Virus record (IMG/VR): IMGVR_UViG_2609459800_000001
Reading direction: 5' to 3' (one strand)
Length of the DNA: 64,000 nt
Source of the DNA: a virus
Taxonomy: Duplodnaviria > Heunggongvirae > Uroviricota > Caudoviricetes
This document shows positions 26,549 to 61,439 of the stretch, one piece after another. The notes under the pieces are model-generated. The model was not told the DNA's origin and did no database searches. It saw nothing but the letters and a program-made list of their open reading frames with translations. A program made the position numbers and the translations under genes. Numbering within the stretch: the first letter of the stretch is position 1; each line of letters opens with the position of its first letter.

Positions 26549-26679
26549 TGTTTTTTAACTACCGATGTTACATTGAACCTGACCTCTTGCGCCTTGAGGC
26601 ATTTTCGGTTTATGCTTATCAGGCACCTCATTAAAACGGGTGCCGGGATTGAGACCCCGGATAATGCAAAAGGCGACAC

Positions 26680-26702
26680 AGACGCCAAAAGCGTCTTTTT
26701 TT
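26680..26702 (+). terminator. Rho-independent terminator
   Basis: AGACGC-caaaa-GCGTCT plus T7. The outer GACACA/TGTGTC can extend the stem. Confidence 0.7.
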
Positions 26703-26744: not shown

Positions 26745-26860
26745 GATCAATGGTAGTGCTGGCTGGGCTGCCGAAAGGCAGGCCGGTTCCCTTTTGCGCC
26801 GGTAGTCTCAACCCAGTCAGTGCTACCGCCATTGAGATTGAGACCTCACGCGGTAGCTCC
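26745..26860 (+). ncRNA. c4: c4-like structured antisense/regulatory RNA (boundaries approximate)
   Basis: A long interrupted helix (26747-26761 with 26818-26835) encloses a GAAA-tetraloop hairpin. An internal GTCTCAA is complementary to TTGAGAC copies at 26649 and 26838. It lies directly upstream of icd/ant, as in P1 immI. Confidence 0.45.
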
Positions 26861-31793: not shown

Positions 31794-31997
31794 TTATAAT
31801 TGAGCCGTGGCGTTAGTCAACTACGAAGACGTGGCCATTACCTACTTAACCAGTTCCGCCAGGGCAGCAGAGTAGGTTTCATCTCGGATGTACCATGCCT
31901 GCATGTTTTCCAGAGAAGCCCGCGAGGTTCCCGGACAGGACTCTGCCATTGCGATAGATTAAATGCAATAACCTAAAAGCGATAACGTGGTGGAAAA

Positions 31998-32635
31998 ATG
32001 TTCATCAGAGCTTATTTAAGGGCATCAACGGAAGATCAGTTTGCCGATCGGGCAAAAGAGATGCTGGGGCAGTTTGTTCAGGAGCGGGGACATAAAATAG
32101 CCAGTTACTACCGGGAGAACATAAGCGGTACAAAACTCGACCGCCCGGAACTGGGACGCTTACTGATGGACAGCCACCGCAATGATATTTTACTGGTCGA
32201 GCAAATTGACCGCCTGACCCGTCTGAGTAACAGTGACTGGATTACGCTGAAAAAGCAGATAGAACAACACGAACTGCGGATTGTCGCCTGGATGTATCCA
32301 CCTCATGGCAGGCGCTGTCAGATAAAGACCCTTCGCAGGCTGACCCAATCACCCGCGCCGTGATAACCGCCATCAATAACATGCTTATCGACCTGATGGC
32401 CGCGATGTCGCATAAGGACTGGCTGAGCCGTCGCCAACGGCAACAACAGGGAATTGAACGGGCTCATACGCTGGGTAAATACCGGGGATAACAGGCCGAT
32501 CAGGAACGGCATCAGAAAGTCCTGTACTACCGGCAGGTCAAGAAACTAAGTATCCATGAAACGGTAGATGCGACAGGGTACAGTCCTTCACAGATATGCC
32601 GCATTCAAGAGAGCCTGAATCGGAATAAAAAGTAG
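31998..32635 (+). pseudogene. Serine recombinase/resolvase (tnpR-like), disrupted
   Basis: The N-terminus MFIRAYLRASTEDQ... has the catalytic Ser motif. There is a -1 frameshift near 32288 (GTCGCC|CTGGAT) and an in-frame TAA at 32489..32491. The C-terminal HTH can be read through to 32635. Confidence 0.75.
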
Positions 32636-32734
32636 CCCTGGCGTTAATGGATTACCTTTCCAGGCTAAGCTCATTGCTCCTGTCAGATACGCAGCCCTGC
32701 CTGTAATAATACAGACTGGGCAATGTGTTGCCAC

Positions 32735-33148
32735 TCAGGCTGACAACTGTCGGAGGATATCCGCTGTATTATAATGAGCCCGTTTTTCTATATATTTCCC
32801 GTCCTTCAGAGTGATCATAAATATCAGAGAAAAGCGCACTTTCCTGCCGCTGGCAGGATGCCCAAGGAATTCACGGGTCTGCACGCCTTCAAAGATAAGA
32901 TAGCAGGCGACTTTATCGTCTCTGGCAAAGATTTCGTGGATACGCATTGTAAATCCCGGAAAAGCATCCATATGGCCTTTTTCCTGTACGATAAACTGCT
33001 CACTGTTCAGCGGTGTATCCACCTGAGAATAGAATTTAAAATCCGGATGGCAGAGGTTTTTCACCTCATCATATTTATTTTCTTCAATCAGACGATAAAA
33101 CTTTTTAACCGTTTTGATATTTTCTTCAACAGACATATTGCACCTCAT
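32735..33148 (-). CDS. SnoaL-like / ester cyclase family protein
   Basis: 137 aa with the NTF2-like pattern (...KKFYRLIEENKYDEV...DFKFY...HMDAFPGF...). Confidence 0.55.
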   Translation of the reverse strand: MRCNMSVEENIKTVKKFYRLIEENKYDEVKNLCHPDFKFYSQVDTPLNSEQFIVQEKGHMDAFPGFTMRIHEIFARDDKVACYLIFEGVQTREFLGHPASGRKVRFSLIFMITLKDGKYIEKRAHYNTADILRQLSA

Positions 33149-34134
33149 TTTTCAGTTTCTTTACCTGCCGGAATATTGCCTGCCGGCGTTCCGTTAAATG
33201 TTTTTCGCCATTCACTGGGACTGACTCCCATCCGCTGCCGGAATATCTGCCGGAAAGTAATGGTGGACTGAAAGCCTGCCAGTTCGGCAACCCGCTCCAC
33301 TGCAATATCTGTACTTTCCAGCAGTTCCTGACTCCGCCGGAGACGCTCTGTGGTGATCCACTCCCAGACCGTCATTCCTGTGGCCGAATGAAAATGGCGT
33401 GTAAGCGTTCTTCGGCTCATGGAGGCTAAATGGGCCAGAGTGTCAATATCATGTGGTAATCCCAGATTTGCGGACAGGTATTCCAGCAGCTGGTTTATGC
33501 GGTTATCGGACGTACTTTTGGGAATAAGCAGTTGCCGGTACTGTGCCTGTCCGCCTTCCCGGTAAGGAGGAGCAACCATCCGGCGGGCTATTTGATTAGC
33601 CGTATATCTGCCCAGGCGTTGCCGGATCACATGGAGACAACAGTCCAGTGCTGCGGCTGTACCGGCTGAGGTGATAATCCGCTCGTCCTCAACATAAAGC
33701 ACGTTCACGTCCAGATGAACCGCCGGGAAAAGCATCTGGAAATCCCGTTCAGCCTCCCAGTGCGTGGCCGCCCGTTTACCATCCAGCAGACCGGTGTAAG
33801 CCAGAACAAAACTCCCCAGGCACAGGCCCACCACCTGAGCTCCATTTTTCCAGGCTGCAACCAGGGCACTGAGCAGAGTTTCAGAAGGCCTTTCATGGAT
33901 GTGTTTCCAGAAAGGAATAATAACGATATCGGCCTCTGCCAGTGCATCAAGCCCGTATTCTGCCCTCATCGCCGTACCTTCAGCAGACCAGATAAGCCCG
34001 GGCTCTTCCGCACATACCCGGCGGCTGAAGAGAGCCTTCCCTTCCAGTATCTCCCCGAACAGGATTAGTGGAACGGAGACATGAAATGTACTGAACCCTT
34101 CGGTGATCACTATAGCGACAGTGATGGTGGACAT
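33145..34134 (-). CDS. GlxA-family transcriptional regulator (DJ-1/PfpI domain + AraC HTH)
   Basis: 329 aa. The N-terminal DJ-1-like domain has GLCLGSFVLA and the C-terminus has an AraC-type double HTH. Confidence 0.75.
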   Translation of the reverse strand: MSTITVAIVITEGFSTFHVSVPLILFGEILEGKALFSRRVCAEEPGLIWSAEGTAMRAEYGLDALAEADIVIIPFWKHIHERPSETLLSALVAAWKNGAQVVGLCLGSFVLAYTGLLDGKRAATHWEAERDFQMLFPAVHLDVNVLYVEDERIITSAGTAAALDCCLHVIRQRLGRYTANQIARRMVAPPYREGGQAQYRQLLIPKSTSDNRINQLLEYLSANLGLPHDIDTLAHLASMSRRTLTRHFHSATGMTVWEWITTERLRRSQELLESTDIAVERVAELAGFQSTITFRQIFRQRMGVSPSEWRKTFNGTPAGNIPAGKETEK

Positions 34135-34149
34135 GCCATGGCCTCCGGG

Positions 34150-34926
34150 TTAAATCGTAACTGATTCACCATCAGCAGGAACGGCAACTGACGCCTGGAT
34201 CTGGTTATCGCGGGCATATTCCAGCAGTTCCTGACGGGTCAGCAGACAGTGGTTTACGGCCTCCATGTGCGTTGCCACAATCAGTGCCTCTGGTACGATA
34301 CGATGGGCTTTCAGGACATCTTCCCTGCCGAAAATAATGGGGCCGAATCCGAGAACATGCGCCCAGCCCGTATTCATAATAACGACGCCAGGATTGAACC
34401 GACGTAAATTATCCTCTACAGCCTTGATCCAGATGGTATCCCCGACCAGATAGAGCGTTTTTTCGGACGGATGCTGGAAGACCACCCCACAGGCATCCCC
34501 AAGGATTGCTGCGAGTTGCGGGTTAGCATAGGCTTCGTCCGAACCATGCTGACAAACGGTTTTAATAAGTGAAATTTCGCCAAATGTGCTTTTGTCAGAC
34601 AGAATAACAAGGTTGCTGAAGCCCTGGGAACGCAGGATCTTTTCATCATGTTCATTCTGAACATAAATCAGTTTATCTTTCGGGATGTGCGCAACAGCCG
34701 CTTCATCCCAGTGGTCAGGGTGTGTGTGGGTGACAATAATGGCATCCACATCCAGCAGTACATCAAGGTCAAAAGGCAGCTCAGTCATCGGGATGCGGAT
34801 ATCTGACCGGGCCGTTCCTTCGAATCCCGGATAGGCTTCTTTTTTCGCAAGCATCGGATCGACAAGAAATTTTTTACCAGCGTAAGAAATGAGTTGTGTG
34901 GCGTTACGTACCTGGATGATCTTCAT
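34150..34926 (-). CDS. MBL-fold metallo-hydrolase
   Basis: 258 aa with the HxHxDH motif (VTHTHPDHW). Confidence 0.75.
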   Translation of the reverse strand: MKIIQVRNATQLISYAGKKFLVDPMLAKKEAYPGFEGTARSDIRIPMTELPFDLDVLLDVDAIIVTHTHPDHWDEAAVAHIPKDKLIYVQNEHDEKILRSQGFSNLVILSDKSTFGEISLIKTVCQHGSDEAYANPQLAAILGDACGVVFQHPSEKTLYLVGDTIWIKAVEDNLRRFNPGVVIMNTGWAHVLGFGPIIFGREDVLKAHRIVPEALIVATHMEAVNHCLLTRQELLEYARDNQIQASVAVPADGESVTI

Positions 34927-35168
34927 TTTAGCAAGTCCTGTATTGGTTAATAACCATCAGAGCCATATCATGATGGCCTAATGTGATAATTATGATTAAA
35001 TCAGGCCTGCCTGCCACTGAAATAATGCCATATTTGGATGATATCAGGCCATTCTTCTGGCTCTCAGGTTTCAGGAATATGTCTGCTGAAAGCGGGTACA
35101 GATCTGACGCATTGAAGGGAAGTATCGTCCTTTAAGGCTTATTGATGTCAGCCAGTACAAAAAATCAT

Positions 35169-35206
35169 CTTAACGTACAATATCTTCCGTTTCCCAAACG
35201 GAGCCC
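35169..35206. repeat. Tn3-family 38-bp terminal inverted repeat
   Basis: The reverse complement is GGGCTCCGTTTGGGAAACGGAAGATATTGTACGTTAAG (GGG...ACGTTAAG). It matches the inner IRs of the 235-bp elements at ~33/38 positions. Confidence 0.8.
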
Positions 35207-36361: not shown

Positions 36362-36559
36362 TAATTTATAGTGGGGACTTTTGATGGTGTAAAACCCCAT
36401 GAATTATTATTTTTTAGTTTTTTGATTCTATTTTTTTTGCATTACCCGTCATAAAAATGAGCTTGCTTACATAATAGAAAATTATTTTATCAACACTATT
36501 ACAACAAACGATTATCACTGATAACATGAGTCCTTTGAAAACAAAGGACTCACCATACT

Positions 36560-37168
36560 ATGTCTAATACCTCGGCAAATGAAATTGTACCGCACTTACC
36601 GCTAATTTTCGAAAATGAAGCTAATGGGATTCTTCAGGATCTGGCCTATACTCCATCGCTTATGGGGTTGATGATGTTCCCGACAGAAGAGGAGCTGAAA
36701 GCAGCGAGAAGCTACATAATTAACGTTTTTGAAGAGTGTTACCGAGCCGGTCATTTGCGCATTATGGGCTTTACTAATGAAGAAAACTTGTTCGGATACG
36801 CCTTAATCTTCGGACATCCATCGGGAAATTTTCCGTTGTACTGTCATAAAATATATGTATATGAGCAATATCGTGGTAATGGACTTGGAAGTAATATACT
36901 GGCAGAAATACTTGCATTTCCAAATGAGGTCGCTTTGATTTGCCAGTCTGATTTGGTTCCTTTTTATGAATCAGCCGGAATGCACTTTAAAGGAAATTAC
37001 ACCACTCCATCAGTCGCCAATTTCAAAAAAACTCGCGGCATGTATGAGGGGCTTTGTTTGATGAGCACTGAAAAAAATGCAAACTCTAATGGTGTACCTA
37101 TATTCATGCTGAACGATAACGATATTGATAACATCATACAGGCTATCGCATCATCGGCACCACGATAA
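36560..37168 (+). CDS. GNAT-family N-acetyltransferase
   Basis: 202 aa with acetyl-CoA motif A YRGNGLGSNIL. It is preceded by a ~200-bp very AT-rich spacer and a 9-bp-stem hairpin (36527..36551). Confidence 0.7.
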   Translation: MSNTSANEIVPHLPLIFENEANGILQDLAYTPSLMGLMMFPTEEELKAARSYIINVFEECYRAGHLRIMGFTNEENLFGYALIFGHPSGNFPLYCHKIYVYEQYRGNGLGSNILAEILAFPNEVALICQSDLVPFYESAGMHFKGNYTTPSVANFKKTRGMYEGLCLMSTEKNANSNGVPIFMLNDNDIDNIIQAIASSAPR

Positions 37169-37250
37169 TATTAATAATTCATCTCGCCGCAGGAACTACA
37201 AACCAGTTGATTGTTTGTGAAACGCCCGGTGCAAACCGGGCCAACAAAAC

Positions 37251-37499
37251 TCAATCAGCATTTAGTAGCAGAGCATTATCTATGATGATCTGCTCCCATT
37301 CTTCGAATGCCCGGTCGCGGACGCCCTGGGGAACGCTGTTTGTTTTGAAATCGACGACCGTCCGCCATTTTCCGTCAGGACGGTACATGCGCAGAGCTTT
37401 ACTTCCCCCTTCCCTGCGCACCTCAACGTTATGCTTGTCAGCAAACTCTTGTAATGCTCGTAGCGTCCCATGCTTTACTGTGTAGTATCGCTTTTTCAA
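37251..37499 (-). CDS. lxc: C1 co-repressor Lxc
   Basis: 82 aa. MKKRYYTVKHGTLRALQEFADKHNVEV... The size and position match P1 Lxc. Confidence 0.8.
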   Translation of the reverse strand: MKKRYYTVKHGTLRALQEFADKHNVEVRREGGSKALRMYRPDGKWRTVVDFKTNSVPQGVRDRAFEEWEQIIIDNALLLNAD

Positions 37500-37936
37500 G
37501 TTTTATCTCCAGCCTGTGCTAAGGCTTCAACTTCCAAATCGTAAGACTCAAACTCATAGTCCTGGTCGTCAACTTCTTCAGGCACTGGCAGTAAATGCCA
37601 GGCTGAGTATATCTGACCATTATCAAAACGCTCCTGGCTGTAGAGCGTCGCGGCTATGAGTGTTAGCGCCGGGCGGTCATAACGGTAAATTTTGCGAACG
37701 TCACGGTCAACGAGACGACCGAAATTACCATAACCGCGCTCCAGTAATAATTTTTTAATTTCCGGCCAGTATGGACCATAGCTGCGGTACAGGCGGGGAT
37801 TTTTCAGTAATCGCCCGCGTAGCCCTGACAGGAAGAAATCAACGTATTCGTCTTCTGTTTTTCCTAACAACGCTGTACGGAGTACCGCCTCAAGATATGT
37901 TTTATTCGGTTTTATTGTATCAGATAGTGTGACCAT
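37496..37936 (-). CDS. ulx: Ulx (needed for DarB packaging in P1)
   Basis: 146-aa ORF immediately upstream of lxc and downstream of darB, the position of P1 ulx. Confidence 0.6.
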   Translation of the reverse strand: MVTLSDTIKPNKTYLEAVLRTALLGKTEDEYVDFFLSGLRGRLLKNPRLYRSYGPYWPEIKKLLLERGYGNFGRLVDRDVRKIYRYDRPALTLIAATLYSQERFDNGQIYSAWHLLPVPEEVDDQDYEFESYDLEVEALAQAGDKT

Positions 37937-37969
37937 ATTATGCGACGCCCGGCGAACCGGGCGCTCCTG

Positions 37970-40095
37970 TTATGCGTATTGTTGGATGACGGCCAGAACG
38001 TCCGACACGTTGTGTTTTGTCTCGATAATCCACCAGTTGCCCGGGAAATCGCTGTTCTTCGCCTTCGCTGGCACCCAGCGAGCGCCGAATTTTTCCTTGA
38101 TTGCGTCTTTAGCACGGAAAAGAACGCCTTTCATGCCGGACGCCTCCTGAAGCCCAAATACCTCGCCAGCGGCGAATTTTGGTGCGTACATCATCTTCAG
38201 GTCGGCGGTGGATACGCGATAATTCAGACCAAGAGACTGAGCTATGCTGGTGGCATCACCCTGTATTGATGATAACTCTTCTTGTTTCTCGTTTCTGGCG
38301 GCAATTTCTTCCTCCGTGATGTTGCCAAGGGCCAGGTTTATCCGATCAGCGTCGGCCTGTTTCTCTTCATCGGTGCGCCCGGCAAGAACCGTGTTAATTC
38401 TCTGCAATATCTCCACATGATTCTTGCGCATGCTGAGCAATTCCGGCGTAACATCGTTAAGATCCACCAGCCCAAGGATGGCAAGGTCGGAAAACATTGA
38501 TACCAGGTTGTAGGTCATGCGATAGCTGAGTTGGCTATAGGCTGATGGCAACTGCACCGCATCCATTTGATAGGCATCCATAAATTTAGAGCCGTCGTTT
38601 ACGACATCCGCAATTGCCGGTGTGATTTTCCCTGTGGTGGCGGCCTCCCTGATTGCTGTTACCCACGATTGAGTCAGCGCGGCGACTGCATGATTCAGAT
38701 TGGCTTTCCGTTCTGCTGCAATGCGCGCGCTTGCTGCGTCCATTGCCTGCTTGATCTCGTCTTTATTGCTGTAAATGCCAATGGGACCAAACTGTGTTGT
38801 GGTGATCTCATAATCTGACGCCCGGAACTCATTGGTACCGAAAATGGCATTGGTGACCTCAAGTTCAGAATCCCCGTTACGAGTAGCCCCCTGACTTGTT
38901 TTCTCCGGCATTTTTGCGATCGCATCCGCTATTTTCTCCTGAATTGCTTCAGGGGATAGCGTATCTCCGTATGACGCGATTACATCGCTATAATTGGATC
39001 CAAACAGTTCAGTCAGGAATACTTCTGCCAAACGGACCTGGCGGTTATTCCCTTCCGACATCATACCAAGCACCCATTTAGCAATTGACGACTTCAGCGC
39101 GCCGTCACGGCGATCCGGGTAAACCGCATGCTTCAGTGGGTCCGTATAGGTACCAACAAAATCAATGCTATAGCCTGACTCTGTAGTCTGAACGCCGTAT
39201 GAGTCAGTGATTTTGATCATGCCGCGCTGCTGGAAACGGTAGAAATCGTCACAGGAAATGATGTCGTTAATCCCGGCGATGGAGACGCCACCACTGATTT
39301 TCTGCATAACAGCATCTTCATCGGGAGTTACATCCACCTGTTATCCAGCGTCTTCACATCCCAGTTACCCGATTTGGTGCCTTTGAAGGTAAAGATGATC
39401 TCCACGTCTGCGCGCTGGCTGTCGAAGTCCAGCGACTTAATGCGAACGATATCACCGGCACAATCGTAGTATTGGCCTACACGCCATGAGCGATCGCCGA
39501 TAACAAGGAACTCACTCGCATGGTTAACCAGGTCAGGATCAACATCCAGAATGCCTTTATTTATTGCATCCTCCACCAGTGGGCGCAGGCGTTTGATATC
39601 CGTCGCGGCCTTCTGAGTACGGTTCAATAATTTCTCATAGCGGGAGATGGCTTGAGAGATATTAGCCTTGCGCTGAATGGCGCTTTTCAACGACGCGCGA
39701 TACTGTGCTAACAACATACGGTCTGTGTGATGGACACTCCCCCAGCGGGCCTTCCAGTCTGCGTTATCAGCTGCTTTGGCCATTACCGCCTGTTTGAATT
39801 TAGCTACCTCGGCGGTGGTCTTTTCAAATTCCGCTTTGCTTCGCTCTAATTCAGCGGTAAGTACCTCCACATCCTCACCAGCTGCGTGCTGCGCCTTGAT
39901 GTAGTTCTGAAGGTCGATAGTAGCCTGTTCTTTCTGGCGAGCGCGTTGCGCGGCTTTCGCCTTATCCATTTGAACCTGCATCATTGCCAGACGTTCACCG
40001 TCATCCTTCGCGGTATACATCTGCATTTCGATCATATCATTGGCGTCGGCGTTCTCCATTTCTGACTTATCTGAACGGAGGATATCGGAGATCCT
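37970..40095 (-). pseudogene. darB: darB, 3' portion (two overlapping reading frames)
   Basis: ORFs 37970..39337 and 39328..40119 are co-linear and overlap by 10 nt. The upstream one runs into the TIME-like element, so its apparent start lies in transposon DNA. Confidence 0.6.
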
Positions 40096-40330
40096 GGGCT
40101 TCGTTTGGGAAACGTACAATATTGTACGGTTGCGCTATTGCGGTAGGGTGTACTCCAACGCTATACGGTCTTTGGCAGACCTTTAGGGAAATGAGATAAG
40201 CTAAATGCGATAAGAGAAAAGCAATAACTTAAAGGCAATAGCTGATTACGATAAATCAATCAGTTACTTATCAGTATCGATTAAAAAATGCTCCTAACGT
40301 ACAATAATTTCCGTTTCCCAAACCGACCCC
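40096..40330. mobile_element. TIME-like 235-bp non-autonomous Tn3-family element, copy A
   Basis: The 38-bp ends are GGGCTTCGTTTGGGAAACGTACAATATTGTACGGTTGC (outer) and, in inverse orientation, GGGGTCGGTTTGGGAAACGGAAATTATTGTACGTTAGG (inner). There is no coding capacity. Confidence 0.8.
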
Positions 40331-40520
40331 TAATAGCCGGACTACGGACGCGCAATAATTCGCCCCTGACTTTCCAGCAGTTGGTAAGCATGTCCGACGG
40401 TCATGAAGCTCATGCCGCTGCTGGCGACCTGTTCGCGCAGTGACGGCAGACGATCGCCGGGTCGCCAGACGCCAGAGGCGATCTGTTCGCAAAGTTGTTC
40501 AGCCAGACGCTGGTATTTTT
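40331..40520 (-). pseudogene. GntR/MocR-family regulator (YdcR-like), N-terminal wHTH fragment
   Basis: The minus strand reads ...YQRLAEQLCEQIASGVWRPGDRLPSLREQVASSGMSFMTVGHAYQLLESQGRIIARP, then TAG, and is cut by copy A. Confidence 0.65.
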
Positions 40521-40691
40521 TATTCTGGTTTCTCGTCGGTCAATGCAGGTGAGCCTCGCAGTGTATAACAGTGAATAAAATTCACAACGATTTGCAAACT
40601 GTTATGGTTAAATATGTCTGTTCTGTTTCTGCCCCTCATTGCCTCACACGCTTAGAATTGCGCTGAATCAATTTTTAATGCGGAGTCAGGC

Positions 40692-42092
40692 ATGTTTGGT
40701 CTTGATGCGTATCACCTGGCAAGGATCCAGTTCGCCTTTACAGTTTCATTTCACATTATCTTTCCGGCGATCACCATTGGGCTTGCCAGTTATCTGGCGG
40801 TGCTGGAAGGCCTTTGGCTAAAAAGCAAAAATCCGGTCTGGCGCTCGTTGTACCACTTCTGGTCAAAAATATTCGCCGTAAATTTCGGCATGGGCGTGGT
40901 TTCCGGTCTGGTGATGGCCTATCAGTTCGGCACCAACTGGAGCGGTTTTTCGGAATTCGCAGGCAGTATTACCGGGCCGTTGCTTACCTATGAGGTGCTG
41001 ACCGCTTTCTTCCTTGAAGCCGGATTCCTCGGGGTGATGCTGTTTGGCTGGAATAAAGTCGGTCCGGGTTTGCATTTCTTCTCAACCTGCATGGTGGCGC
41101 TTGGCACCCTCATTTCCACCTTCTGGATCCTGGCGTCTAACAGTTGGATGCAAACGCCGCAGGGGTTTGAGATCGTCAACGGCCAGGTTGTGCCCGTGGA
41201 CTGGTTCGCCGTTATCTTCAATCCTTCGTTCCCTTATCGGCTGCTGCATATGTCCGTCGCCGCATTTCTCAGTAGCGCGCTGTTTGTCGGCGCTTCGGCA
41301 GCCTGGCATCTGCTGCGCGGCAACGCAACGCCAGCCATTCGCACGATGTTTTCCATGGCGTTGTGGATGACGCTTATTGTCGCGCCGGTGCAGGCGTTAA
41401 TCGGCGATATGCATGGGCTGAACACCCTGAAACATCAGCCAGCCAAAATCGCCGCGATTGAAGGTCACTGGGAAAACCCGCCGGGTGAGCCCACGCCGCT
41501 GCTGCTGTTTGGCTGGCCGGATATGGAACAGGAACGCACCCGCTATGGACTGGCGATCCCGGCGCTGGGAAGCCTGATCCTGACGCACAGTCTGGATAAA
41601 CAGGTTCCGGCGCTAAAAGAATTCGCCAAAGAGGATCGCCCTCACTCGACGATCGTGTTCTGGTCGTTTCGCATCATGGCCGGCCTGGGCATGTTAATGA
41701 TCCTGCTAGGGCTCTGTGCGCTCTGGCTGCGCTACAGGCAGCGCCTCTACACCTCGCGCCCGTTCCTGCGCTTTGCGCTATGGATGGGACCCTCGGGGCT
41801 CATCGCCATTCTCGCGGGCTGGGTGACCACTGAGGTCGGACGCCAGCCGTGGGTGGTGTACGGTTTACAGCGTACTGCCGACGCGGTGTCGGCCCACGGC
41901 GATTTACATATGAGCATTTCGTTGCTCGCTTTCTTTGTTGTCTACAGCTCAGTCTTTGGCGTCGGCTACAGCTATATGATTCGCCTGATCCGCAAAGGCC
42001 CGCTGGAAGATGATTCCGCGCCGCCGCCGGGCACACCCGCCAGGCCGCTTTCCGCCGCCGTCCTCGATTCTCAACATAAGGCACATCGCTAA
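40692..42092 (+). CDS. cydA: Cytochrome bd-type ubiquinol oxidase subunit I (short-Q-loop, CioA-like)
   Basis: 466 aa. ...ARIQFAFTVSFHIIFPAITIGLA...GWVTTEVGRQPWVVYG... are hallmark CydA motifs. It is shorter than E. coli CydA/AppC. Confidence 0.9.
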   Translation: MFGLDAYHLARIQFAFTVSFHIIFPAITIGLASYLAVLEGLWLKSKNPVWRSLYHFWSKIFAVNFGMGVVSGLVMAYQFGTNWSGFSEFAGSITGPLLTYEVLTAFFLEAGFLGVMLFGWNKVGPGLHFFSTCMVALGTLISTFWILASNSWMQTPQGFEIVNGQVVPVDWFAVIFNPSFPYRLLHMSVAAFLSSALFVGASAAWHLLRGNATPAIRTMFSMALWMTLIVAPVQALIGDMHGLNTLKHQPAKIAAIEGHWENPPGEPTPLLLFGWPDMEQERTRYGLAIPALGSLILTHSLDKQVPALKEFAKEDRPHSTIVFWSFRIMAGLGMLMILLGLCALWLRYRQRLYTSRPFLRFALWMGPSGLIAILAGWVTTEVGRQPWVVYGLQRTADAVSAHGDLHMSISLLAFFVVYSSVFGVGYSYMIRLIRKGPLEDDSAPPPGTPARPLSAAVLDSQHKAHR

Positions 42093-43102
42093 TGGGTATT
42101 GATTTATCGGTTATCTGGTTTGTGATCATCGTTTTCGCCACGCTAATGTATATCGTGATGGATGGATTCGATTTGGGTATTGGCATTCTGTTTCCTGTCA
42201 CACGAAACGCAGAGGATCGTGATGTGATGGTCAATAGCGTCGCGCCGGTGTGGGACGGTAATGAAACCTGGCTGGTGCTGGGCGGCGCGGGGCTGTTTGG
42301 GGCTTTCCCGATGGCCTATGCGGTTATTATCGATGCGCTGACCATTCCGTTGACGCTGATGCTGATCGGACTGATTTTTCGCGGCGTGGCCTTCGAGTTT
42401 CGCTTCAAGGCCACGCCAGCCCACCGCCCATTTTGGGACCATGCTTTTCTCGGCGGGTCGATTCTGGCTACCTTCGCCCAAGGGATCGTGGTTGGCGCAG
42501 TGATCAACGGTTTCCCGGTGACCGGTCGCAGCTACAGCGGCGGGCCGTTCGACTGGTTAACCCCCTTCACTCTGTTCTGTGGCGTCGGACTGGTCGTTGC
42601 CTATGCGCTCTTAGGCGCAACCTGGCTGGTGATGAAAAGCGAAAATCCGCTTCAGGATAAAATGCGCAGCGTCGCGAAAAAACTGCTGCTGGCCCTGCTG
42701 TTGTCAATTGCGATAATCAGCCTCTGGACACCGTTAGCGCATCCGGCGATCGCCGACCGTTGGTTTACGCTTCCCAACCTGGGCTATCTGCTGCCGGTTC
42801 CGGTGCTGGTGATCGCGTTCAGCGTCTGGTTATGGCGCACACTGGGTCGTCCGGAAAACCACACGTTTCCGTTTGTGCTGACGCTCGGGCTAATCTTCCT
42901 TGGTTTCAGCGGCCTGGGCATCAGTATCTGGCCGCACATTATTCCGCCTTCGGTTACCCTCTGGCAGGCAGCCGCCCCCGCCCAGAGTCAGGGGTTTATG
43001 CTGGTCGGTGCGCTGCTCATCATTCCGGTGATTTTGGTGTACACCTTCTGGAGTTACTATGTGTTTCGCGGCAAAGTGCAACATGGCGAGGGGTATCACT
43101 GA
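42092..43102 (+). CDS. cydB: Cytochrome bd-type ubiquinol oxidase subunit II (CioB-like)
   Basis: 336 aa with a TAATG overlap with subunit I. It has the MDGFDLGIGIL...WDGNETWLV motif. Confidence 0.9.
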   Translation: MGIDLSVIWFVIIVFATLMYIVMDGFDLGIGILFPVTRNAEDRDVMVNSVAPVWDGNETWLVLGGAGLFGAFPMAYAVIIDALTIPLTLMLIGLIFRGVAFEFRFKATPAHRPFWDHAFLGGSILATFAQGIVVGAVINGFPVTGRSYSGGPFDWLTPFTLFCGVGLVVAYALLGATWLVMKSENPLQDKMRSVAKKLLLALLLSIAIISLWTPLAHPAIADRWFTLPNLGYLLPVPVLVIAFSVWLWRTLGRPENHTFPFVLTLGLIFLGFSGLGISIWPHIIPPSVTLWQAAAPAQSQGFMLVGALLIIPVILVYTFWSYYVFRGKVQHGEGYH

Positions 43103-43230
43103 TGCAACATTCTCTCTGGAAACGCCTGATGTGGCTGGTCATCCTTTGGGGCGGCAGCGTGTTGGCGCTGGCGGCGGTGGGCATGTTTTTTCGCCTGCTC
43201 ATGACTGCGGCGGGGTTTAAAGCGCATTAA
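43102..43230 (+). CDS. Small membrane protein (DUF2474-like) downstream of cydB
   Basis: MQHSLWKRLMWLVILWGGSVLALAAVGMFFRLLMTAAGFKAH (42 aa). The ATG overlaps the cydB stop. It corresponds to the last 42 codons of track ORF 42760..43230. Confidence 0.55.
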   Translation: MQHSLWKRLMWLVILWGGSVLALAAVGMFFRLLMTAAGFKAH

Positions 43231-43334
43231 GCGGACACCTCGCCGGATGTCGGCTTTGGGCCAGGCGTTAACCGGCGGAAATAAATACCAACACAAAGGC
43301 CCGGTAAACGCCACCGGGCTGATGTCGCAAAGGA

Positions 43335-43748
43335 TTAAGGTTTACGCTTCGGCAGCGTTTTCATCAGATCTTCCGGACTGACGGAACCCACCACGCTGCC
43401 CGGCAGCGGCATTTTAAGAATGTGATCTTCAATCTTGCCGATAACGTGCATTTCACACGGGCGACAGCCAAATTTCAGCGTCAGCACCTCATCACCGTTG
43501 ACCAGTTGCATTGGCGTCGCTTTCCAGCTTTTGATGTTACCTTTCGCCTGTTTCGGGCAAAGATTAAAGGCAAAACGCAGGCAATGCTTGGTGATCATCA
43601 CAGGCACATCGCCCTTTTCTTGATGCGCTTCATACGCCGCGTCGATCAACTGTACGCCATAACAATGGTAGAACTCACGCGCCTTCTGGTTATAGACGTT
43701 TGCCAGAAAACTCAGATGCGTCTGCGGGTAGACCGGCGCGGGATCGGA
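43335..43748 (-). pseudogene. U32-family peptidase (YdcP-like), C-terminal fragment
   Basis: The minus strand reads ...LSFLANVYNQKAREFYHCYGVQLIDAAYEAHQEKGDVPVMITKHCLR...KRKP. The 5' part is cut off by copy B. Confidence 0.6.
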
Positions 43749-43983
43749 GGGGTCGGTTTGGGAAACGGAAATTATTGTACGTTAGGAGCATTTTTTAATC
43801 GATACTGATAAGTAACTGATTGATTTATCGTAATCAGCTATTGCCTTTAAGTTATTGCTTTTCTCTTATCGCATTTAGCTTATCTCATTTCCCTAAAGGT
43901 CTGCCAAAGACCGTATAGCGTTGGAGTACACCCTACCGCAATAGCGCAACCGTACAATATTGTACGTTTCCCAAACGCAGCCC
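43749..43983. mobile_element. TIME-like 235-bp element, copy B (inverted relative to copy A)
   Basis: By eye, its reverse complement is identical to copy A except for one base (6th position, G vs T). Confidence 0.8.
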
Positions 43984-44991
43984 AGGTACGCGTTTTTAAT
44001 TGCCATATCCCGCGCCGATTGCGCCACCGCGCTGGTGGGCAGATAGGCCAGTTGTGACGCTTCGCGACCATTTTTATAGCTATTGCGGTAGTTGTGACCT
44101 TCGTCGGCGATCACACTATCGAAGCCCATATCCTCAAAGTACGGATACTTCTCTGCTTTTTCGGTGCCGGTATCTGAATACTCCGACAATACCCGGCGAC
44201 GCGCGGCCTCTTTGCGGTGGGAGTCGGAGTCCATTGCGCTGGCTACGCGCCCGGCAGCAACGAAGTCATAAAGCATATCCTGTGCATGCTCATCTACGGT
44301 GTCATCACGTAGCGGAATGCGGGCGTATTGTTCTTTGGTAAACACGACTGCACGGTAATTTGAGTGCGGGATTGCATTCATACGTGCCGTGATAGTGGCT
44401 TCATCTGCCAGTTTAAGGGCATCGCGCATAACTGGAGTGCCATCAGTACCAAGAACAGGTTTACCGTTCTCATCGAGCACCGGCACCTGGCGAATCTGAT
44501 CGCCATCCATCAGCACATCAAGACCGACAAACAGGTAGTTACTGAATGCCTCTTCACTCAGGAACTCTTTTGCTTCGTAATACCAGTTTTCCAGCACTGA
44601 TTTATATTGTCTCATTAAAAACGCCGGTGCCCGCCGATGGTTCCAGAGTGTTACCTACGTCCGCGCCATAGAGGTTCATGATCTCCCAGACGCCTTCAGC
44701 GATAGGCTTTGGTGTGTAATATTCGGAGACGGACCCGCCAATGCCGCCTTCGCCGGTGTACCCAGCCAGGATCTGGCGCTGTTCATCTGTCAGTGTCGCG
44801 CCATCCACCAGCGAATTAAGCAAATCTATCGCCTTCTGATTCGCCTCCCGGCGCAGCCGGTCATAGCTTTTGCCTTCCACCTTTTCCACGCCGTATCTAA
44901 TCGGCGCTCGATGAGATGTTATTGCCCTAATGTATTTCAATATTTCGCTGACACTTGAACAGCGAAACACCCCCATAGATAGCTTGTTCAT
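43984..44991 (-). pseudogene. darB: darB, 5' portion (methyltransferase and start of helicase region), frameshifted
   Basis: 44602..44991 ends with the SAM-MTase motif I LEPSAGTGVF. 43893..44615 carries the helicase motif DEGHNYRN. The two frames overlap by 14 nt, and the reading frame runs into copy B. Confidence 0.7.
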
Positions 44992-45001
44992 TGGTAATCC
45001 T

Positions 45002-45023
45002 TAACAAGTGATTAGTGTTAAAT
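45002..45023 (+). promoter_or_regulatory. Candidate late promoter of prt-pro (AACAAGTGATT-N5-TAAATT)
   Basis: Shared late-motif architecture, about 45 nt upstream of the prt start. Confidence 0.55.
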
Positions 45024-45053
45024 TCCGTTCAAACACGATGCGAATTATTCTAA

Positions 45054-47787
<2,734 letters not shown>

Positions 47788-47798
47788 CCACGAAAAAT

Positions 47799-47820
47799 AA
47801 CCCCGGCGGATGCCGGGGTT
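47799..47820. terminator. Bidirectional terminator
   Basis: AACCCCGGC-ggat-GCCGGGGTT lies between the convergent pro and lyz-side genes. Confidence 0.8.
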
Positions 47821-47831
47821 CTCGTTAACTA

Positions 47832-48086
47832 TTATCGCCTTCGCCTGCGTGCCATATATTTGCGCACCGCGCGGCGTGGACAATCTGAAGCGGTTTCTTT
47901 CTGCTGCATCAATCTTGCAGCCATGCTCAAAAATGTCAGGCACAGCCGAAGCCCGGCATACAATAGCGGTTCCAGTGGCCACGTCTCATTGAGCACATAT
48001 ACCGCCATGAAAATCGAGTCGAAAACTATCGCCGCCAGCGATAACTTCATTGTCGAAAGTCGGCGGAGCTGCCGGAGTTTATTCAT
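47832..48086 (-). CDS. Small membrane protein downstream of lyz
   Basis: 84 aa with two hydrophobic segments and a basic tail (RRRRR). Its start overlaps the lyz stop. Confidence 0.5.
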   Translation of the reverse strand: MNKLRQLRRLSTMKLSLAAIVFDSIFMAVYVLNETWPLEPLLYAGLRLCLTFLSMAARLMQQKETASDCPRRAVRKYMARRRRR

Positions 48087-48636
48087 TGACCAGTCCCGTC
48101 AGGCAAAGCTGGCGTTCTTTTTCACGGCGAATCTTTAAACCTCGCAGGGGCACGCCGTTACTGTTCACGAAATCAGGGAGATGGTTACACATATTCACCC
48201 ATTCCCCTTTCTGCGCCCACTTGTGGATGGACGTTTCTACTCGCATGCCTCGCGCTTTGCTGTAGTAGGTCCGTAAGCTATTACATCCCATATTGAATGC
48301 CGCGCTTGTCATTGCACTGAAGGCATTATCGGGCATGTCTTTGCCCCGGAAGTGCTGATTAATACAGCGTTCAGCGATCAGGATATTCTTTTCCCAATCA
48401 GCGGCGATTTGCTGGTCGGTTTTTCGCACACCCGGCGTTACCCCGTGTGTATTACCGATCCCGTCAGTCCATACCCCCGCCGGGCACATGTATGGATCAC
48501 GTCGGCAACCTTCAGCGTTACCAATCAGCTCAAGCCCTGCCTGGTTGGTTCGCACATTGCCATTACCCATCACGATGGTAATCATCACCGCGATAGCGCA
48601 AATTGCACCGCCTCCTGCGGCTGTTTTTCCCTTCAT
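48079..48636 (-). CDS. lyz: SAR endolysin (T4-lysozyme family)
   Basis: 185 aa from MKGKTAAGGGAICAIAVMITIVMG (signal-arrest-release segment), then ...ELIGNAEGCRRDPY...DGIGNTHG. This matches P1 Lyz. Confidence 0.9.
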   Translation of the reverse strand: MKGKTAAGGGAICAIAVMITIVMGNGNVRTNQAGLELIGNAEGCRRDPYMCPAGVWTDGIGNTHGVTPGVRKTDQQIAADWEKNILIAERCINQHFRGKDMPDNAFSAMTSAAFNMGCNSLRTYYSKARGMRVETSIHKWAQKGEWVNMCNHLPDFVNSNGVPLRGLKIRREKERQLCLTGLVNE

Positions 48637-48723
48637 AAAGACCTCATAAGCGAATTTTTTACGCTCCAGGACAAACACTCATTCACAGCCAATACCGACT
48701 GACTCGATCCCTTTAGAAGGCAC

Positions 48724-48745
48724 AGGATAATGCAAATCACTTGTT
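48724..48745 (-). promoter_or_regulatory. Candidate late promoter of lyz (AACAAGTGATT-N5-TATCCT on the minus strand)
   Basis: Shared late-motif architecture, about 90 nt upstream of lyz. Confidence 0.55.
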
Positions 48746-48769
48746 AGCTACGTTTCAAAGATATACATT

Positions 48770-48786
48770 ATTGCTCTAATTAATTT
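48770..48786 (+). promoter_or_regulatory. C1 operator upstream of ssb
   Basis: ATTGCTCTAATTAATTT is near-consensus. Confidence 0.85.
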
Positions 48787-48805
48787 ATTTTATTAGGTAA
48801 GATAA

Positions 48806-49294
48806 GTGGCACAACGCGGTGTAAACAAAGTCATCCTGATTGGTACCCTGGGGCAAGACCCGGAGATCAGGTATATACCAAATGGCGGCGCGGTCGGAAG
48901 ACTCAGCATCGCAACGAATGAATCATGGCGCGACAAGCAAACGGGCCAACAGAAAGAGCAAACAGAATGGCATAAAGTCGTTTTGTTCGGAAAACTTGCT
49001 GAAATTGCGAGTGAGTATTTACGAAAAGGTTCTCAGGTCTACATCGAAGGGAAACTTAAAACCCGTAAGTGGACAGATGACGCCGGTGTAGAACGTTACA
49101 CGACGGAAATTATCGTCAGCCAGGGCGGCACCATGCAAATGATCGGCGCTCGCCGTGACGATTCACAGTCCTCAAATGGCTGGGGGCAATCAAACCAACC
49201 TCAAAACCACCAGCAATACAGTGGTGGCGGTAAACCTCAGAGCAACGCCAATAACGAACCTCCAATGGACTTTGACGACGATATTCCGTTTTGA
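48806..49294 (+). CDS. ssb: Single-stranded DNA-binding protein
   Basis: 162 aa. [17 protein letters not shown]...[12 protein letters not shown]... OB fold and the acidic tail DFDDDIPF. Confidence 0.95.
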
Positions 49295-49491
49295 ATGTGT
49301 AAAAAACGACTGAAAGAAAAGCGGTGGTCCAGACGCCGACAAAAGCACGAACTCGCAAACAAACGCCAAAGTTGGCAATGGCACGCGCTTTTCACGAAAA
49401 GAACACCCCGAGATATTGCTTTCGCTGGTGGGAAAACATTCCTGACCCACCTGAAGGCGCAATACATCAGGTTTTAAGCAGAGGAAAGACT

Positions 49492-50169
49492 ATGAATAAC
49501 ATGACAACGAAAGAGCTTTTGACGGCACTTCCAAAATACAAAAGCCATAAAACAGTTCGCGCCTCAAAAATCAAAGATATCGAAATTATCGCCCTAATGG
49601 ATGTGGTCCTTTTTTGCAACATCGAAGTCGTTGAGCCAGAAGGGGTAAAAGTCCATGTTGATAAAATGTTTTTGCAAAAACACCGACCAGAAATTGGCGG
49701 ATATCTGGTCGCTTATGAGGACGGATCTCTGTCCTATTCACCAGAAAAAACATTTGAAGAAGGCTTTAGTCGGACTAACGACTTCTTCGAAAATGGGGTA
49801 TCGCTCAGTATTGAAGGTCACAATGGGGTGACATTCATTACAGCCAGGGACGTAACTATTGCTGCCAGTGGCATCATTACCACACAAGAAGAAATCGACC
49901 TTGAAGCAGCCGACTTTTCTGACGCGCTGATGTGGCTGAAGGATGGCAAGAAAGTTGCTCGACGCGGGTGGAACGGCGAAAACCAATTCTGCTGGCTGGT
50001 TCCTGAAGGACAGTACCCGGCACGAATGGAAGCCATTAAGGGATATTTCCCCGGCGACCTCGTTCCGTATGGTGCTTATTTCGCCTTAAAAAATGCACAA
50101 GGTGTAGTTGTTCCGTGGGTGCCTTCTGTATGCGACTTACTGGCATGTGACTGGTTTGTAGTGGAGTGA
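49492..50169 (+). CDS. Two-domain protein with a C-terminal DUF2829 (Tad2-like) domain
   Basis: 225 aa from ATG 49492 (RBS AGAGGAAAG). The C-terminal ~85 aa FSDALMWLKDGKKVARRGWNGENQF...VVPWVPSVCDLLACDWFVV fit the DUF2829 pattern. Confidence 0.65.
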   Translation: MNNMTTKELLTALPKYKSHKTVRASKIKDIEIIALMDVVLFCNIEVVEPEGVKVHVDKMFLQKHRPEIGGYLVAYEDGSLSYSPEKTFEEGFSRTNDFFENGVSLSIEGHNGVTFITARDVTIAASGIITTQEEIDLEAADFSDALMWLKDGKKVARRGWNGENQFCWLVPEGQYPARMEAIKGYFPGDLVPYGAYFALKNAQGVVVPWVPSVCDLLACDWFVVE

Positions 50170-50175
50170 TTTAAC

Positions 50176-50964
50176 GTGGAAAATACTAAAGCAATTCAAT
50201 ACCGCCTGCGTAATGGCCAGAGTGTCGAAGTGACCATCAATAATGATGGTGTACCTGGCGAAAAGGTTTCTATCTCTGATCTGGCTATCGAAAAAACCAT
50301 CATGTGCCACCTTGGCTTTACTGAAGAAGTGAGCAAAAAGCATGGTGTAGCTATCTGGCGCACAATGGATACTGGCATGCGCAGATTCATTACTGCTCGT
50401 ACCCCTGGTATGACCATGATGGACCTCATGCAGATTGCGCCGCTGTTTGAGTGTGAACCTTTGGATGTATTCAGCAATCCAGCCATCTGCCAGCAGTTAT
50501 ATGGTGAGATGAAACTCGCGGTTACCCCCATTGTGCTGCATGAAGGATCGCTTGCTGGCGTATGGAAAGTAGAGCGAATTTCAAGCTACATGCCTTTCCA
50601 CATCCATGTCAACGGCGTAATCACAGGTGAAAATCAACCTGTTTCAGTTACAAAGTCAGACCTCAAGCGCGCAATTCTTGAAGCAAGTTGTCGAGTTATC
50701 GGCCTGGGCAAACAGTCTTATGTTTCCTTCCCGGCTGGCCCTGAAGGCCCGGCAGAAATTCTGATTATGGATGCCGATCTGCTCTGGCAAATACAGTTTC
50801 TGATTGGCAAAAGCATCATCCGCGCTGAAGAACTCGATCAGTACATTACCTGCACGATGACGGATGAAGTCAAAAGTGTGGCTATAGCCAATGCCCGGAA
50901 CCTATGTCGTGCTGCATTAACAGAACTGCAAGAAAACACCACGGAAGAAGTGGAAAGCGATTAA
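50176..50964 (+). CDS. Hypothetical protein
   Basis: 262-aa ORF with a GTG start, 6 nt after the preceding stop. No motif recognised. Confidence 0.55.
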   Translation: MENTKAIQYRLRNGQSVEVTINNDGVPGEKVSISDLAIEKTIMCHLGFTEEVSKKHGVAIWRTMDTGMRRFITARTPGMTMMDLMQIAPLFECEPLDVFSNPAICQQLYGEMKLAVTPIVLHEGSLAGVWKVERISSYMPFHIHVNGVITGENQPVSVTKSDLKRAILEASCRVIGLGKQSYVSFPAGPEGPAEILIMDADLLWQIQFLIGKSIIRAEELDQYITCTMTDEVKSVAIANARNLCRAALTELQENTTEEVESD

Positions 50965-50967
50965 AAA

Positions 50968-50991
50968 AAATCCCGCCGATTGGCGGGATTT
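50968..50991. terminator. Bidirectional terminator
   Basis: AAATCCCGCC-gatt-GGCGGGATTT has an A8 run before it and T-rich sequence after it. Confidence 0.85.
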
Positions 50992-50993
50992 CT

Positions 50994-51311
50994 TCAATAT
51001 ACGATCTGGTCTACATGATCCCCAAAATCATCGTCGTCATCGTCGTCGTCCTCATCGCCACCCTCTACTGCTGGCCAATCAACAAACCAGCCAGCGTAAA
51101 GATGCAGCGTTCGGAGAACATCACTTGCGGGAGCATCAAGGGTGTTAACGAATCCCATATAGCTATTGGGATTTGCCCCAGCTATGGCTTCAGCGATCAT
51201 GTCCTCGGTAATGTCACCGGAGATAATGCTTAAACGCCCGGAAACTTCTTCATTATCATCAAATTCGATAATGGCATCTCCGCCTAATGGCGCTGCGATT
51301 TTAATCTGCAT
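50994..51311 (-). CDS. Small highly acidic protein with a poly-Asp tract (last gene of the dar operon)
   Basis: 105 aa ending ...GGDEDDDDDDDDFGDHVDQIVY. Its start overlaps the ddrB stop by 11 nt. Confidence 0.6.
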   Translation of the reverse strand: MQIKIAAPLGGDAIIEFDDNEEVSGRLSIISGDITEDMIAEAIAGANPNSYMGFVNTLDAPASDVLRTLHLYAGWFVDWPAVEGGDEDDDDDDDDFGDHVDQIVY

Positions 51312-58979: not shown

Positions 58980-58996
58980 ACCTTGGTTTAAGAGAA
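58971..58996. other. cix crossover site (cin-proximal)
   Basis: CAATCCTAAACCTTGGTTTAAGAGAA. Its inner half is the exact inverted copy of the site at 63521..63546. Confidence 0.85.
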
Positions 58997-59171
58997 CTCG
59001 GTACCAGCGGTGAAAAGATCCCCCTGTTGAGCACGGCTAACACATGGAGTGCGCGCCAGACTTTCAACGGCGGGATCACCGGGGCGCTGACAGGGAACGC
59101 CGACACCGCGACGAAATTAAAAACAGCCATAAACATTAATGGCGTCAGGTTCGATGGTTCGGCTGACATTA
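58985..59171. repeat. C-segment inverted repeat, left copy
   Basis: It matches the reverse complement of 63346..63532 with a handful of mismatches and encodes the shared ...[59 protein letters not shown]. Confidence 0.9.
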
Positions 59172-60880: not shown

Positions 60881-60884
60881 ATTT

Positions 60885-61412: not shown

Positions 61413-61416
61413 AAAT

Positions 61417-61436
61417 AAGGCCCGATAACGGGCCTT
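61417..61436. terminator. Bidirectional terminator between U' and U
   Basis: AAGGCCCG-ataa-CGGGCCTT is flanked by an A-run and a T-run. Confidence 0.85.
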
Positions 61437-61439
61437 TTC

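Follow-up and report, generated by a model that had tools for sequence, protein, structure and literature searches.

The stretch of DNA analyzed here, called the window throughout, is a 64,000-nucleotide virus sequence assigned to the Caudoviricetes (IMG/VR record IMGVR_UViG_2609459800_000001). At positions 40331-43748 it carries a complete operon (cioA, cioB, cydZ) for a cytochrome bd-type quinol oxidase, enclosed between two inverted copies of a Tn3-derived miniature inverted-repeat element (TIME), which in turn lie within the remains of darB, a gene of bacteriophage P1. The cargo slice of 3,418 bp is exactly the DNA between the two flanking repeats: it contains, in this order, the truncated ydcR, the promoter region, cioA, cioB, cydZ and the truncated rlhA, this being the name under which the last gene is annotated in the E. 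coli chromosome. All features are listed in Table 1.

Table 1. Features of the oxidase cargo, its bounding elements and the interrupted gene (window positions)
Feature	Position	Strand	Description
darB C-terminal remnant	37970-40095	-	frameshifted; ends at the left TIME; overlapping open reading frames 37970-39337 and 39328-40119
Left TIME	40096-40330	+	235-bp Tn3-derived miniature inverted-repeat element; GGGG end toward the cargo
ydcR-like GntR/MocR stub	40332-40520	-	first 60 codons, winged-helix domain only; Pfam GntR 45.6 bits
Native divergent promoter/operator region of the cio operon	40521-40691	+	171 bp, intergenic; conserved motifs
cioA/cydA	40692-42092	+	subunit I of cytochrome bd quinol oxidase, short Q-loop, 466 aa
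cioB/cydB	42092-43102	+	cytochrome bd oxidase subunit II, 336 aa; TIGR00203 above cut-off
cydZ (DUF2474)	43102-43230	+	42-aa single-helix membrane peptide; PF10617 56.3 bits; typical of CIO operons
GC-rich hairpin	43299-43319	-	between the convergent cydZ and rlhA fragment; 9 pairs, 6 of them G-C
rlhA/ydcP C-terminal fragment (U32 family)	43335-43748	-	137 codons; 92.6% identical to E. coli RlhA residues 517-652 of 653
Right TIME	43749-43983	-	inverted with respect to the left copy; GGGG end toward the cargo
darB N-terminal remnant	43984-44991	-	second internal deletion at 44604/44607

The oxidase operon

The three genes are joined by one-base overlaps of stop and start codons (TGATG), at both the cioA/cioB and the cioB/cydZ junctions, and a GGAG ribosome-binding site lies upstream of the cioA ATG. 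Their products match the respective Pfam models over the full length: PF01654 (Cyt_bd_oxida_I, 1-418 of 418 positions, 563 bits) for CioA, PF02322 (Cyt_bd_oxida_II, 1-302 of 302, 340 bits) for CioB, and DUF2474 for the 42-aa open reading frame. Individual CioA residues were checked on alignments to the solved E. coli structures 6RKO (bd-I) and 7OSE (bd-II): the equivalents of E. coli CydA H19, E99, E107, H186, K252, E257, R391, M393, E445 and R448 are all kept. Conservation was also evaluated against 73-80 chromosomal orthologues, considering only alignment columns conserved at 95% or above. CioA, compared with 80 orthologues, agrees with the consensus at 301 of 301 such columns and CydZ at 11 of 11; in CioB the agreement extends to 168 of 169 columns, the sole deviation being the conservative substitution L74M.

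A first-pass annotation, made by reading the sequence, had described cydA, cydB and a DUF2474-like gene as intact and translationally coupled. Coordinates, lengths, overlaps and full-length domain matches all agree with that description; no conserved residue of CioA or CydZ is altered, and in CioB only L74 is. As far as sequence can tell, cioA, cioB and cydZ are intact. Downstream of them, the hairpin at 43299-43319 looks like the terminator of rlhA.

Type of oxidase

CioA totals 466 aa, versus 514 and 522 aa for its E. coli counterparts, and its Q-loop lacks about 63 of the residues present in the bd-I and bd-II loops of E. coli, residue 318 adjoining the equivalent of AppC residue 381. The closest solved structures are those of AppCB (bd-II, PDB 7OSE, E=7e-87) and CydAB (bd-I, PDB 6RKO, E=2e-76). 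The score with the NCBIfam equivalog model of bd-II is 291 bits, versus a cut-off of 1025, and that with the bd-I model 264 bits, versus a cut-off of 968. Allen et al. gave the DUF2474 peptide the name CydZ and reported it from the canonical cio operons of both Pseudomonas and Zymomonas (PMC4325964); in the work of Degli Esposti et al. it serves as a marker of subtype C of the cyanide-insensitive oxidases, CIO (PMC5322542). The "CioAB-like", cyanide-insensitive-type label given at first pass is justified, because the published CIO signature combines a short Q-loop with a DUF2474 gene immediately following that of subunit II. On these sequence features, the window oxidase may be assigned to the CIO type, and not to bd-I or bd-II.

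Both the window oxidase and CioAB(-CydZ) of P. aeruginosa, a CIO of subtype C, are two-subunit quinol oxidases of the bd family, with a short Q-loop and with cydZ directly downstream; this likeness is one of operon features. Unlike the P. aeruginosa system, the window operon is an enterobacterial orthologue, native between ydcR and rlhA and here borne by a phage-plasmid; it has no working linked regulator, and its cyanide insensitivity is predicted only. AppCB and CydAB of E. coli belong to the same protein family as the window oxidase, which shares all the checked haem ligands and Q-loop residues; yet they have the longer Q-loop, and their small subunit is CydX/AppX instead of CydZ. In Chromobacterium violaceum, CioAB is reported to give resistance to metals, nitric oxide (NO), sulfide and cyanide (PMC11837568).

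Chromosomal origin of the cargo

At both ends the slice is interrupted within a gene, as the first-pass annotation had noted: the N-terminus of a GntR/MocR regulator, with a TAG at codon 61, and the C-terminus of a U32 peptidase are both present. A longer form of the same DNA, 99.65% identical, is found in plasmid pEC213_1-OXA-181, where it extends to a full-length, 469-aa regulator and to 1.56 kb of the U32 gene. In Citrobacter amalonaticus, ydcR(-), cioA, cioB, cydZ and rlhA(-) are contiguous, with amino acid identities to the window of 92%, 96%, 91%, 81% and 93%, respectively. The same tight gene order is seen in 10 further species among the 80 retrieved, and many others feature it with insertions. 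The E. coli locus consists of ydcR, a hicB remnant, yncJ and rlhA, with no cio genes; in none of 5,426 complete E. coli genomes is the cargo on the chromosome, its localization being on plasmids only.

The gene order of C. amalonaticus and of other genera, together with an E. coli ydcR/rlhA locus devoid of cio, bears out the initial idea of one contiguous chromosomal slice, and, on this comparative evidence, confirms the cargo as a segment of the chromosome of another enterobacterium. A search with the cargo had been proposed as a way to both synteny and donor: the first was obtained, the second was not, as among the chromosomes of 185,579 species representatives the closest one, again that of C. 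amalonaticus, is only 82.7% identical at the nucleotide level. The 90%-identity protein cluster to which CioA belongs carries a Citrobacter-derived name.

The E. coli chromosome retains, upstream of ydcR and beside the hicB remnant, the first half of the putative cio operator (TATATCAG-N27-AACTGTAAT; positions 6411-6490 of the retrieved segment L100). Because this half is retained there, it suggests that a cio operon may once have been present at the E. coli ydcR-rlhA locus, later to be replaced by hicAB/yncJ.

Promoter region and regulator

All 171 bp of the native upstream region, already reported as retained in the first reading, are present, and their motifs are kept in 12 genera. They contain a promoter-like site, TTCACA-16-TATGGT with a TG extension (40581-40608), where the extended -10 element TGTTATGGT (40600-40608) is accompanied by a weak -35 element. 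Repeats are found at ATAACAG (40565-71)-N27-CTGTTAT (40599-605) and at CTGTTTCTG (40623-31): the CTGTTAT and CTGT..CT positions are invariant across the 12 genera. Such a repeat spacing and a divergent gene arrangement are typical of MocR-type regulators. Because operator spacing and arrangement resemble these systems, we infer that YdcR controls the cio operon.

The internal TAG of the linked regulator, pointed out at first pass, is there, and corresponds to a G-to-A change at 40344 relative to the longer slice of pEC213_1-OXA-181; that it is a single defect does not hold, as the stub has three. A one-nucleotide deletion affects an A-run at 40515, next to the start codon, and both plasmid copies of the regulator start with ATA, where chromosomal orthologues have ATG; the stub is also truncated by the left TIME. 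Because the linked regulator is inactivated, expression is uncertain despite the retained promoter region. The E. coli YdcR is 85% identical to the regulator of the slice, and 5,411 of the 5,426 complete E. coli genomes contain a near-full-length match to ydcR. Since the host gene is nearly universal and this similar, and since half of the operator is kept in E. coli, control of the cio operon in trans by the host YdcR is plausible.

The flanking elements

The inverted arms, at 40093-40331 and 43748-43986, are 239 nt long and match at 238 of 239 positions; the two 235-bp TIME copies they contain differ at one position. Each copy features 33-nt terminal inverted repeats, GGGGTCGGTTTGGGAAACGGAAATTATTGTACG..., and one end reads GGGGTCGGTTTGGGAAACGGAAATTATTGTACGTTAGG, which is of Tn3/Tn21 style and resembles the Tn21 inverted repeat. 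No long open reading frame is present, and single-strand folding pairs the termini only. A related element is MITESen1 of pLAO96, a 256-bp Tn3-derived miniature inverted-repeat transposable element (MITE) flanking qnrS1: similarity by BLAST is about 74% over 198 bp, and the two elements can be aligned end to end by MAFFT. TIME-related sequences are found on 2,015 enterobacterial plasmids, mostly conjugative.

Other identities were considered for the repeats. They are not insertion sequences, but Tn3-derived MITEs. A single-strand promoter (Frpo/ssi-like) and the CUP-type leading-region repeats of IncN plasmids were discarded, as folding involves only the 33-nt termini; the 74% matches, at first ascribed to an IncN plasmid, are in fact to the two MITESen1 copies of pLAO96. 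No similarity is seen to the TIME244 copies of pMTY13770_IncN. As to the parent transposon, the Tn3-family elements of two carrier sequences (L096 and L004) have ends unrelated to TIME; those of L096 presumably bear Tn1721- and Tn3-type inverted repeats. The only related inverted repeat found in this search is that of a Tn3-family remnant at 35159-35206 of the window.

TIME composites (TIME-COMPs) are known from plasmids of Enterobacteriaceae, putative phage-plasmids included (Gomi & Yano 2026, PMC13367494). By homology and architecture, the structure described here is a TIME-COMP of the MITESen1 family, with a respiratory operon in place of a resistance gene. A system published in 2014 (PMC4133298) likewise consists of two elements of about 240 bp, with Tn3-family terminal repeats, bracketing a few kb of passenger DNA; there, too, the copies are inverted, the passenger occurs in both orientations and the element is homologous to MITESen1. 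The differences lie in the cargo, respiratory here and a resistance gene there, in the location on a P1-like phage-plasmid, in the element itself, a distinct 235-bp variant with the above divergence from MITESen1, and in the lack of 5-bp direct repeats.

Two TIME copies, 91% identical, are also present in Escherichia phage PhiR41_1 (PV340561.1, L099 9001-9241), a 108-kb phage-plasmid-like genome which encodes ParA, a primase and an integrase and differs in kind from the P1-like carrier; the family of miniature elements is therefore found on more than one kind of phage-plasmid.

The insertion site

P1 annotation places darB at 10469-17236. On the left of the composite, window 37253-40094 corresponds to P1 9752-12594, with 97.7% identity and one gap; on the right, window 43983-44604 corresponds to P1 13961-14582, and window 44607-46000 to P1 16852-18246. 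Two segments are accordingly missing: P1 12595-13961, exactly at the insertion, and P1 14583-16851. The insertion thus added 3,888 bp to darB and the deletions removed 3,636 bp, leaving a difference of +252 bp; a size change so close to neutral may matter for headful packaging, or be a coincidence. The gene is dispensable for P1 growth.

No 5-bp direct repeats flank the composite: it is bordered by ATCCT and AGGTA, with the loss of P1 12595-13961 in between. The lack of a target duplication fits an adjacent deletion which would have followed the insertion. Some of the published TIME-COMPs are also without direct repeats (PMC13367494, Table 1 and Fig. S4).

The carrier replicon

The window is colinear with P1, P7, RCS47 and SJ46 across the packaging, tail, portal, lysis, immunity, cre and invertible tail-fibre regions: identity is 94-98% over 68-90% of three query blocks of the window. 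The positions of cre, c8, lxc, ulx, darB and prt agree with those in P1, and two adjacent RNAs, the C4 antisense immunity RNA (26746-26833) and an isrK-like small RNA (26623-26701), are predicted by Rfam. An identical composite allele is present in pEcoUTI1e, a closed circular, 90-kb sequence typed IncY. This colinearity supports the assignment of the window replicon to the P1/P7-like (Punavirus) phage-plasmids, and the first-pass annotation, where a phage-plasmid carrier was proposed, appears to have been right.

P1-like phage-plasmids bearing transposon-borne accessory genes have been surveyed (PMC9600943). Those of the RCS47/SJ46 type share with the window the backbone family and the route by which transposable elements bring cargo into non-essential regions; their reported cargo is antibiotic resistance, whereas the window carries a terminal oxidase.

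Recurrence of the allele

The cargo was found in 27 of the 5,426 complete E. coli genomes, always on plasmids: 2 carry the full composite, 6 the longer slice, 17 a derived form and 2 are partial. The derived form has an inverted cargo and has lost one TIME, together with 122 bp of the ydcR stub and a stretch of darB of about 0.2 kb. In an assembly collection, 1,955 indexed blocks contain the exact CioA protein, almost always on plasmid-sized contigs.

Orientation of the cargo in the carriers was read from BLAST colinearity, as identical TIMEs defeat exact-match typing of the junctions. Four P1-like assemblies (L001, L090, L094 and L095) are colinear with window 37.25-46.0 kb and have the same junctions and both darB deletions; in another (L096) the cargo is flipped between the TIMEs. 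The derived form is identical in L002, L089, L091-L093, L097, L098, L101 and L102. Among the carriers the cargo differs by 0.06-0.09%, while the adjoining P1 DNA (window 37253-51900) differs by 0.55-2.6%. As the cargo is nearly identical while the P1 flanks diverge, and as the junctions are common to the carriers, these figures suggest a single insertion event, after which recombination would have carried the allele from one diverged P1-like backbone to another.

An instance of the derived form is p20170403CC-1 (NZ_AP025206.2; L108/L002), a 92-kb multidrug-resistance plasmid typed IncHI1B/MOBH. It keeps P1 c1, coi, cre, c8, lpa, phd/doc, lxc and ulx, and carries tet(A), qnrS1, floR, blaTEM-1, strAB, sul2, dfrA14 and intI1: in appearance, this is a former phage-plasmid that decay has turned into a resistance plasmid. 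P1 DNA is present on both sides of the cargo, and the transfer was therefore from P1 to the plasmid.

Oxidase genes in other phages

The first-pass view that a terminal oxidase is unusual for a temperate phage is in line with the searches. A translated search found CydA-like sequence in 20 of 50,697 GenBank phage records: short unannotated fragments, faecal "Bacteriophage sp." contigs, and "Acinetobacter phage" contigs with ordinary cydA_1/cydA_2. No characterized complete phage encoding a CydA homologue is apparent among the 50,697. IMG/VR contains two contigs with an identical CioA protein, both with the derived form, and five with relatives 88-97% identical; three of these five align to the window solely in the cio operon (about 80% nucleotide identity), two not at all, and all five are judged likely to be host DNA next to prophages. 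In the full-text literature, no paper was found on a cytochrome bd or terminal oxidase cargo of P1-like or IncY phage-plasmids, or on plasmid-borne cioAB.

A CIO-type operon, a TIME-bounded composite and a P1-like phage-plasmid are each of an already known kind; an oxidase operon as a class of phage cargo is undescribed. The plastoquinol terminal oxidase of cyanophages (PTOX) is a phage-borne auxiliary metabolic quinol:oxygen oxidoreductase, which could relieve the electron transport chain of the host. It is an unrelated di-iron protein of lytic cyanophages, while the window cargo encodes a multi-subunit haem enzyme on a temperate phage-plasmid.

Proposed history and function

The locus is best described as a TIME-bounded chromosomal cio slice, placed in darB of a P1/P7-like phage-plasmid and carrying an intact CIO operon; this reading, including the reconstructed history and the predicted function, is regarded as probable. 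The slice would have reached plasmids first in its longer form, with a full-length ydcR. Two TIMEs would then have inserted, into ydcR and rlhA, and the composite would have entered darB, a non-essential antirestriction gene, where an adjacent deletion would have taken about 1.37 kb of darB together with the target duplication. After this single event, recombination would have spread the allele among diverged P1-like backbones, with flips between the inverted TIMEs, and carried it into P1-derived multidrug-resistance plasmids. Transcription, if any, would start from the extended -10 promoter of the operon, probably under the control of the host YdcR in trans. The enzyme would be assembled by the haem and CydDC machinery of the host, cydDC being encoded by E. 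coli, and would provide the lysogen with a third bd-type oxidase, for respiration under cyanide, sulfide, NO or low oxygen.

Several observations weigh against this reconstruction. No Tn3-family transposase is found in the window and, without 5-bp repeats, transposition of the composite into darB as a unit is a matter of deduction. The plasmid replicon and about one third of the P1 genome lie outside the window, and the viability of the phage is putative. The poor -35 element and the conserved MocR-like repeats point to a need for an activator, and the regulator next to the operon is inactivated. E. coli already has its own bd-I and bd-II, with which the enzyme may be redundant. The intactness of near-identical copies may reflect youth rather than selection. 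Finally, the cargo is rare, being present in 2 of the about 492 P1-like elements of the complete E. coli genomes (as counted by the P1-like portal gene), and is commoner in P1-derived multidrug-resistance plasmids than in P1-like phage-plasmids; hitch-hiking is possible there.

That the P1-borne operon is a working respiratory module, activated by the host YdcR and giving lysogens a cyanide-, sulfide- or NO-tolerant respiration or a microaerobic advantage, is a tentative and rather doubtful proposal. If true, the module would restore to E. coli a CIO-type oxidase that the species lacks at its own ydcR-rlhA locus, its benefit would explain the spread of the allele over diverged P1 backbones and P1-derived resistance plasmids, and the case would be the first demonstration that a temperate enterobacterial phage can move a terminal oxidase.

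Possible too, though short of probable, is that the operon is a silent hitch-hiker: a recent arrival, unexpressed for want of its MocR-type activator or redundant with bd-I and bd-II, which would persist by linkage to its backbone. The three defects of the regulator stub, the near identity of the operon copies and the rarity among P1-like elements agree with this, as does the fact that 17 of the 27 E. coli carriers have the form found in P1-derived plasmids, one of which, p20170403CC-1, bears the resistance genes named above. Differences between plasmid variants, however, are unevenly distributed: the window and the longer slice differ at 3 positions in the 2,539 bp of the oxidase genes, only one of these changes being non-synonymous (A212T), versus 9 in about 880 bp of flanks and intergenic DNA. 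Moreover, no conserved residue is altered, the host YdcR may act in trans, and the allele has spread into P1 backbones diverged by up to 2.6%. The operon is intact in 15 of the 15 copies examined, with 0-3 differences per 2,539 bp; on these counts the evidence for selection on the oxidase genes seems weak in both directions.

On another E. coli plasmid (NZ_CP076705.1; L004 9362-10579), a different Tn3-family transposon interrupts the same cioA at codon 406; the plasmid-borne oxidase can therefore be lost without obvious penalty.

The window carrier might also be no inducible phage but a defective plasmid derived from P1, which would make the oxidase a plasmid cargo. The plasmids with the rearranged allele do retain, besides resistance regions, only c1, coi, cre, lpa and phd/doc, and in the window darB is destroyed and the replicon not included. 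This is nevertheless unlikely, in view of the colinearity with P1, P7, RCS47 and SJ46 from packaging to immunity (C4 RNA, c1) and tail-fibre segment, of a net size change at darB compatible with headful packaging, and of the dispensability of darB. An assembly chimera, with the oxidase segment misjoined into a P1 contig via the 235-bp repeats, would fit the identical repeats that bound the cargo and its GC content (58%), different from the surroundings, but is most improbable, as the same four junctions recur in the closed circular pEcoUTI1e and in at least 4 other independent assemblies, and both cargo orientations exist, as real inverted repeats predict.

Discussion of phage-plasmids has centred mostly on the antibiotic resistance they carry; here the cargo consists of core energy-metabolism genes and, if the oxidase is active, phage infection could alter E. 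coli respiration in the gut or in niches rich in sulfide, NO or cyanide. The locus illustrates the capture of chromosomal genes by tiny Tn3-derived elements, genome-size compensation in a headful-packaging phage, and the movement of phage-plasmid DNA into conjugative or mobilizable resistance plasmids. A host YdcR retained in E. coli offers a simple hypothesis of how a foreign cargo may plug into existing host control.

Other features of the window

Nested inverted repeats at 58973-63544 (one of 199 nt at 97%, plus others) correspond to the invertible tail-fibre C-segment of P1-like phages. Window 1-25000 matches 549 phage records, many Stx-converting phages among them; lambdoid phages have some segment of it in common, perhaps an insertion sequence or a single gene that they share.

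Window 36362-37252 is a short, low-GC (39%) cassette, found in place of P1 res/mod (the EcoP1 type III restriction-modification genes). It holds a 202-aa open reading frame for a GNAT acetyltransferase (36560-37168), where pEcoUTI1e has a DUF2971 gene: the site appears to be a variable hotspot.

A second passenger block is located between P1 c8 and mat, at 31850-35206. It contains a truncated resolvase (31998-32363), a SnoaL-like protein, an AraC/DJ-1 regulator and an MBL-fold hydrolase, and ends in the Tn3-family terminal repeat at 35159-35206, which is 85% identical to the TIME end. The block, which is absent from pEcoUTI1e and present in L090 and L098, looks like the remnant of a transposon related to the parent of TIME.

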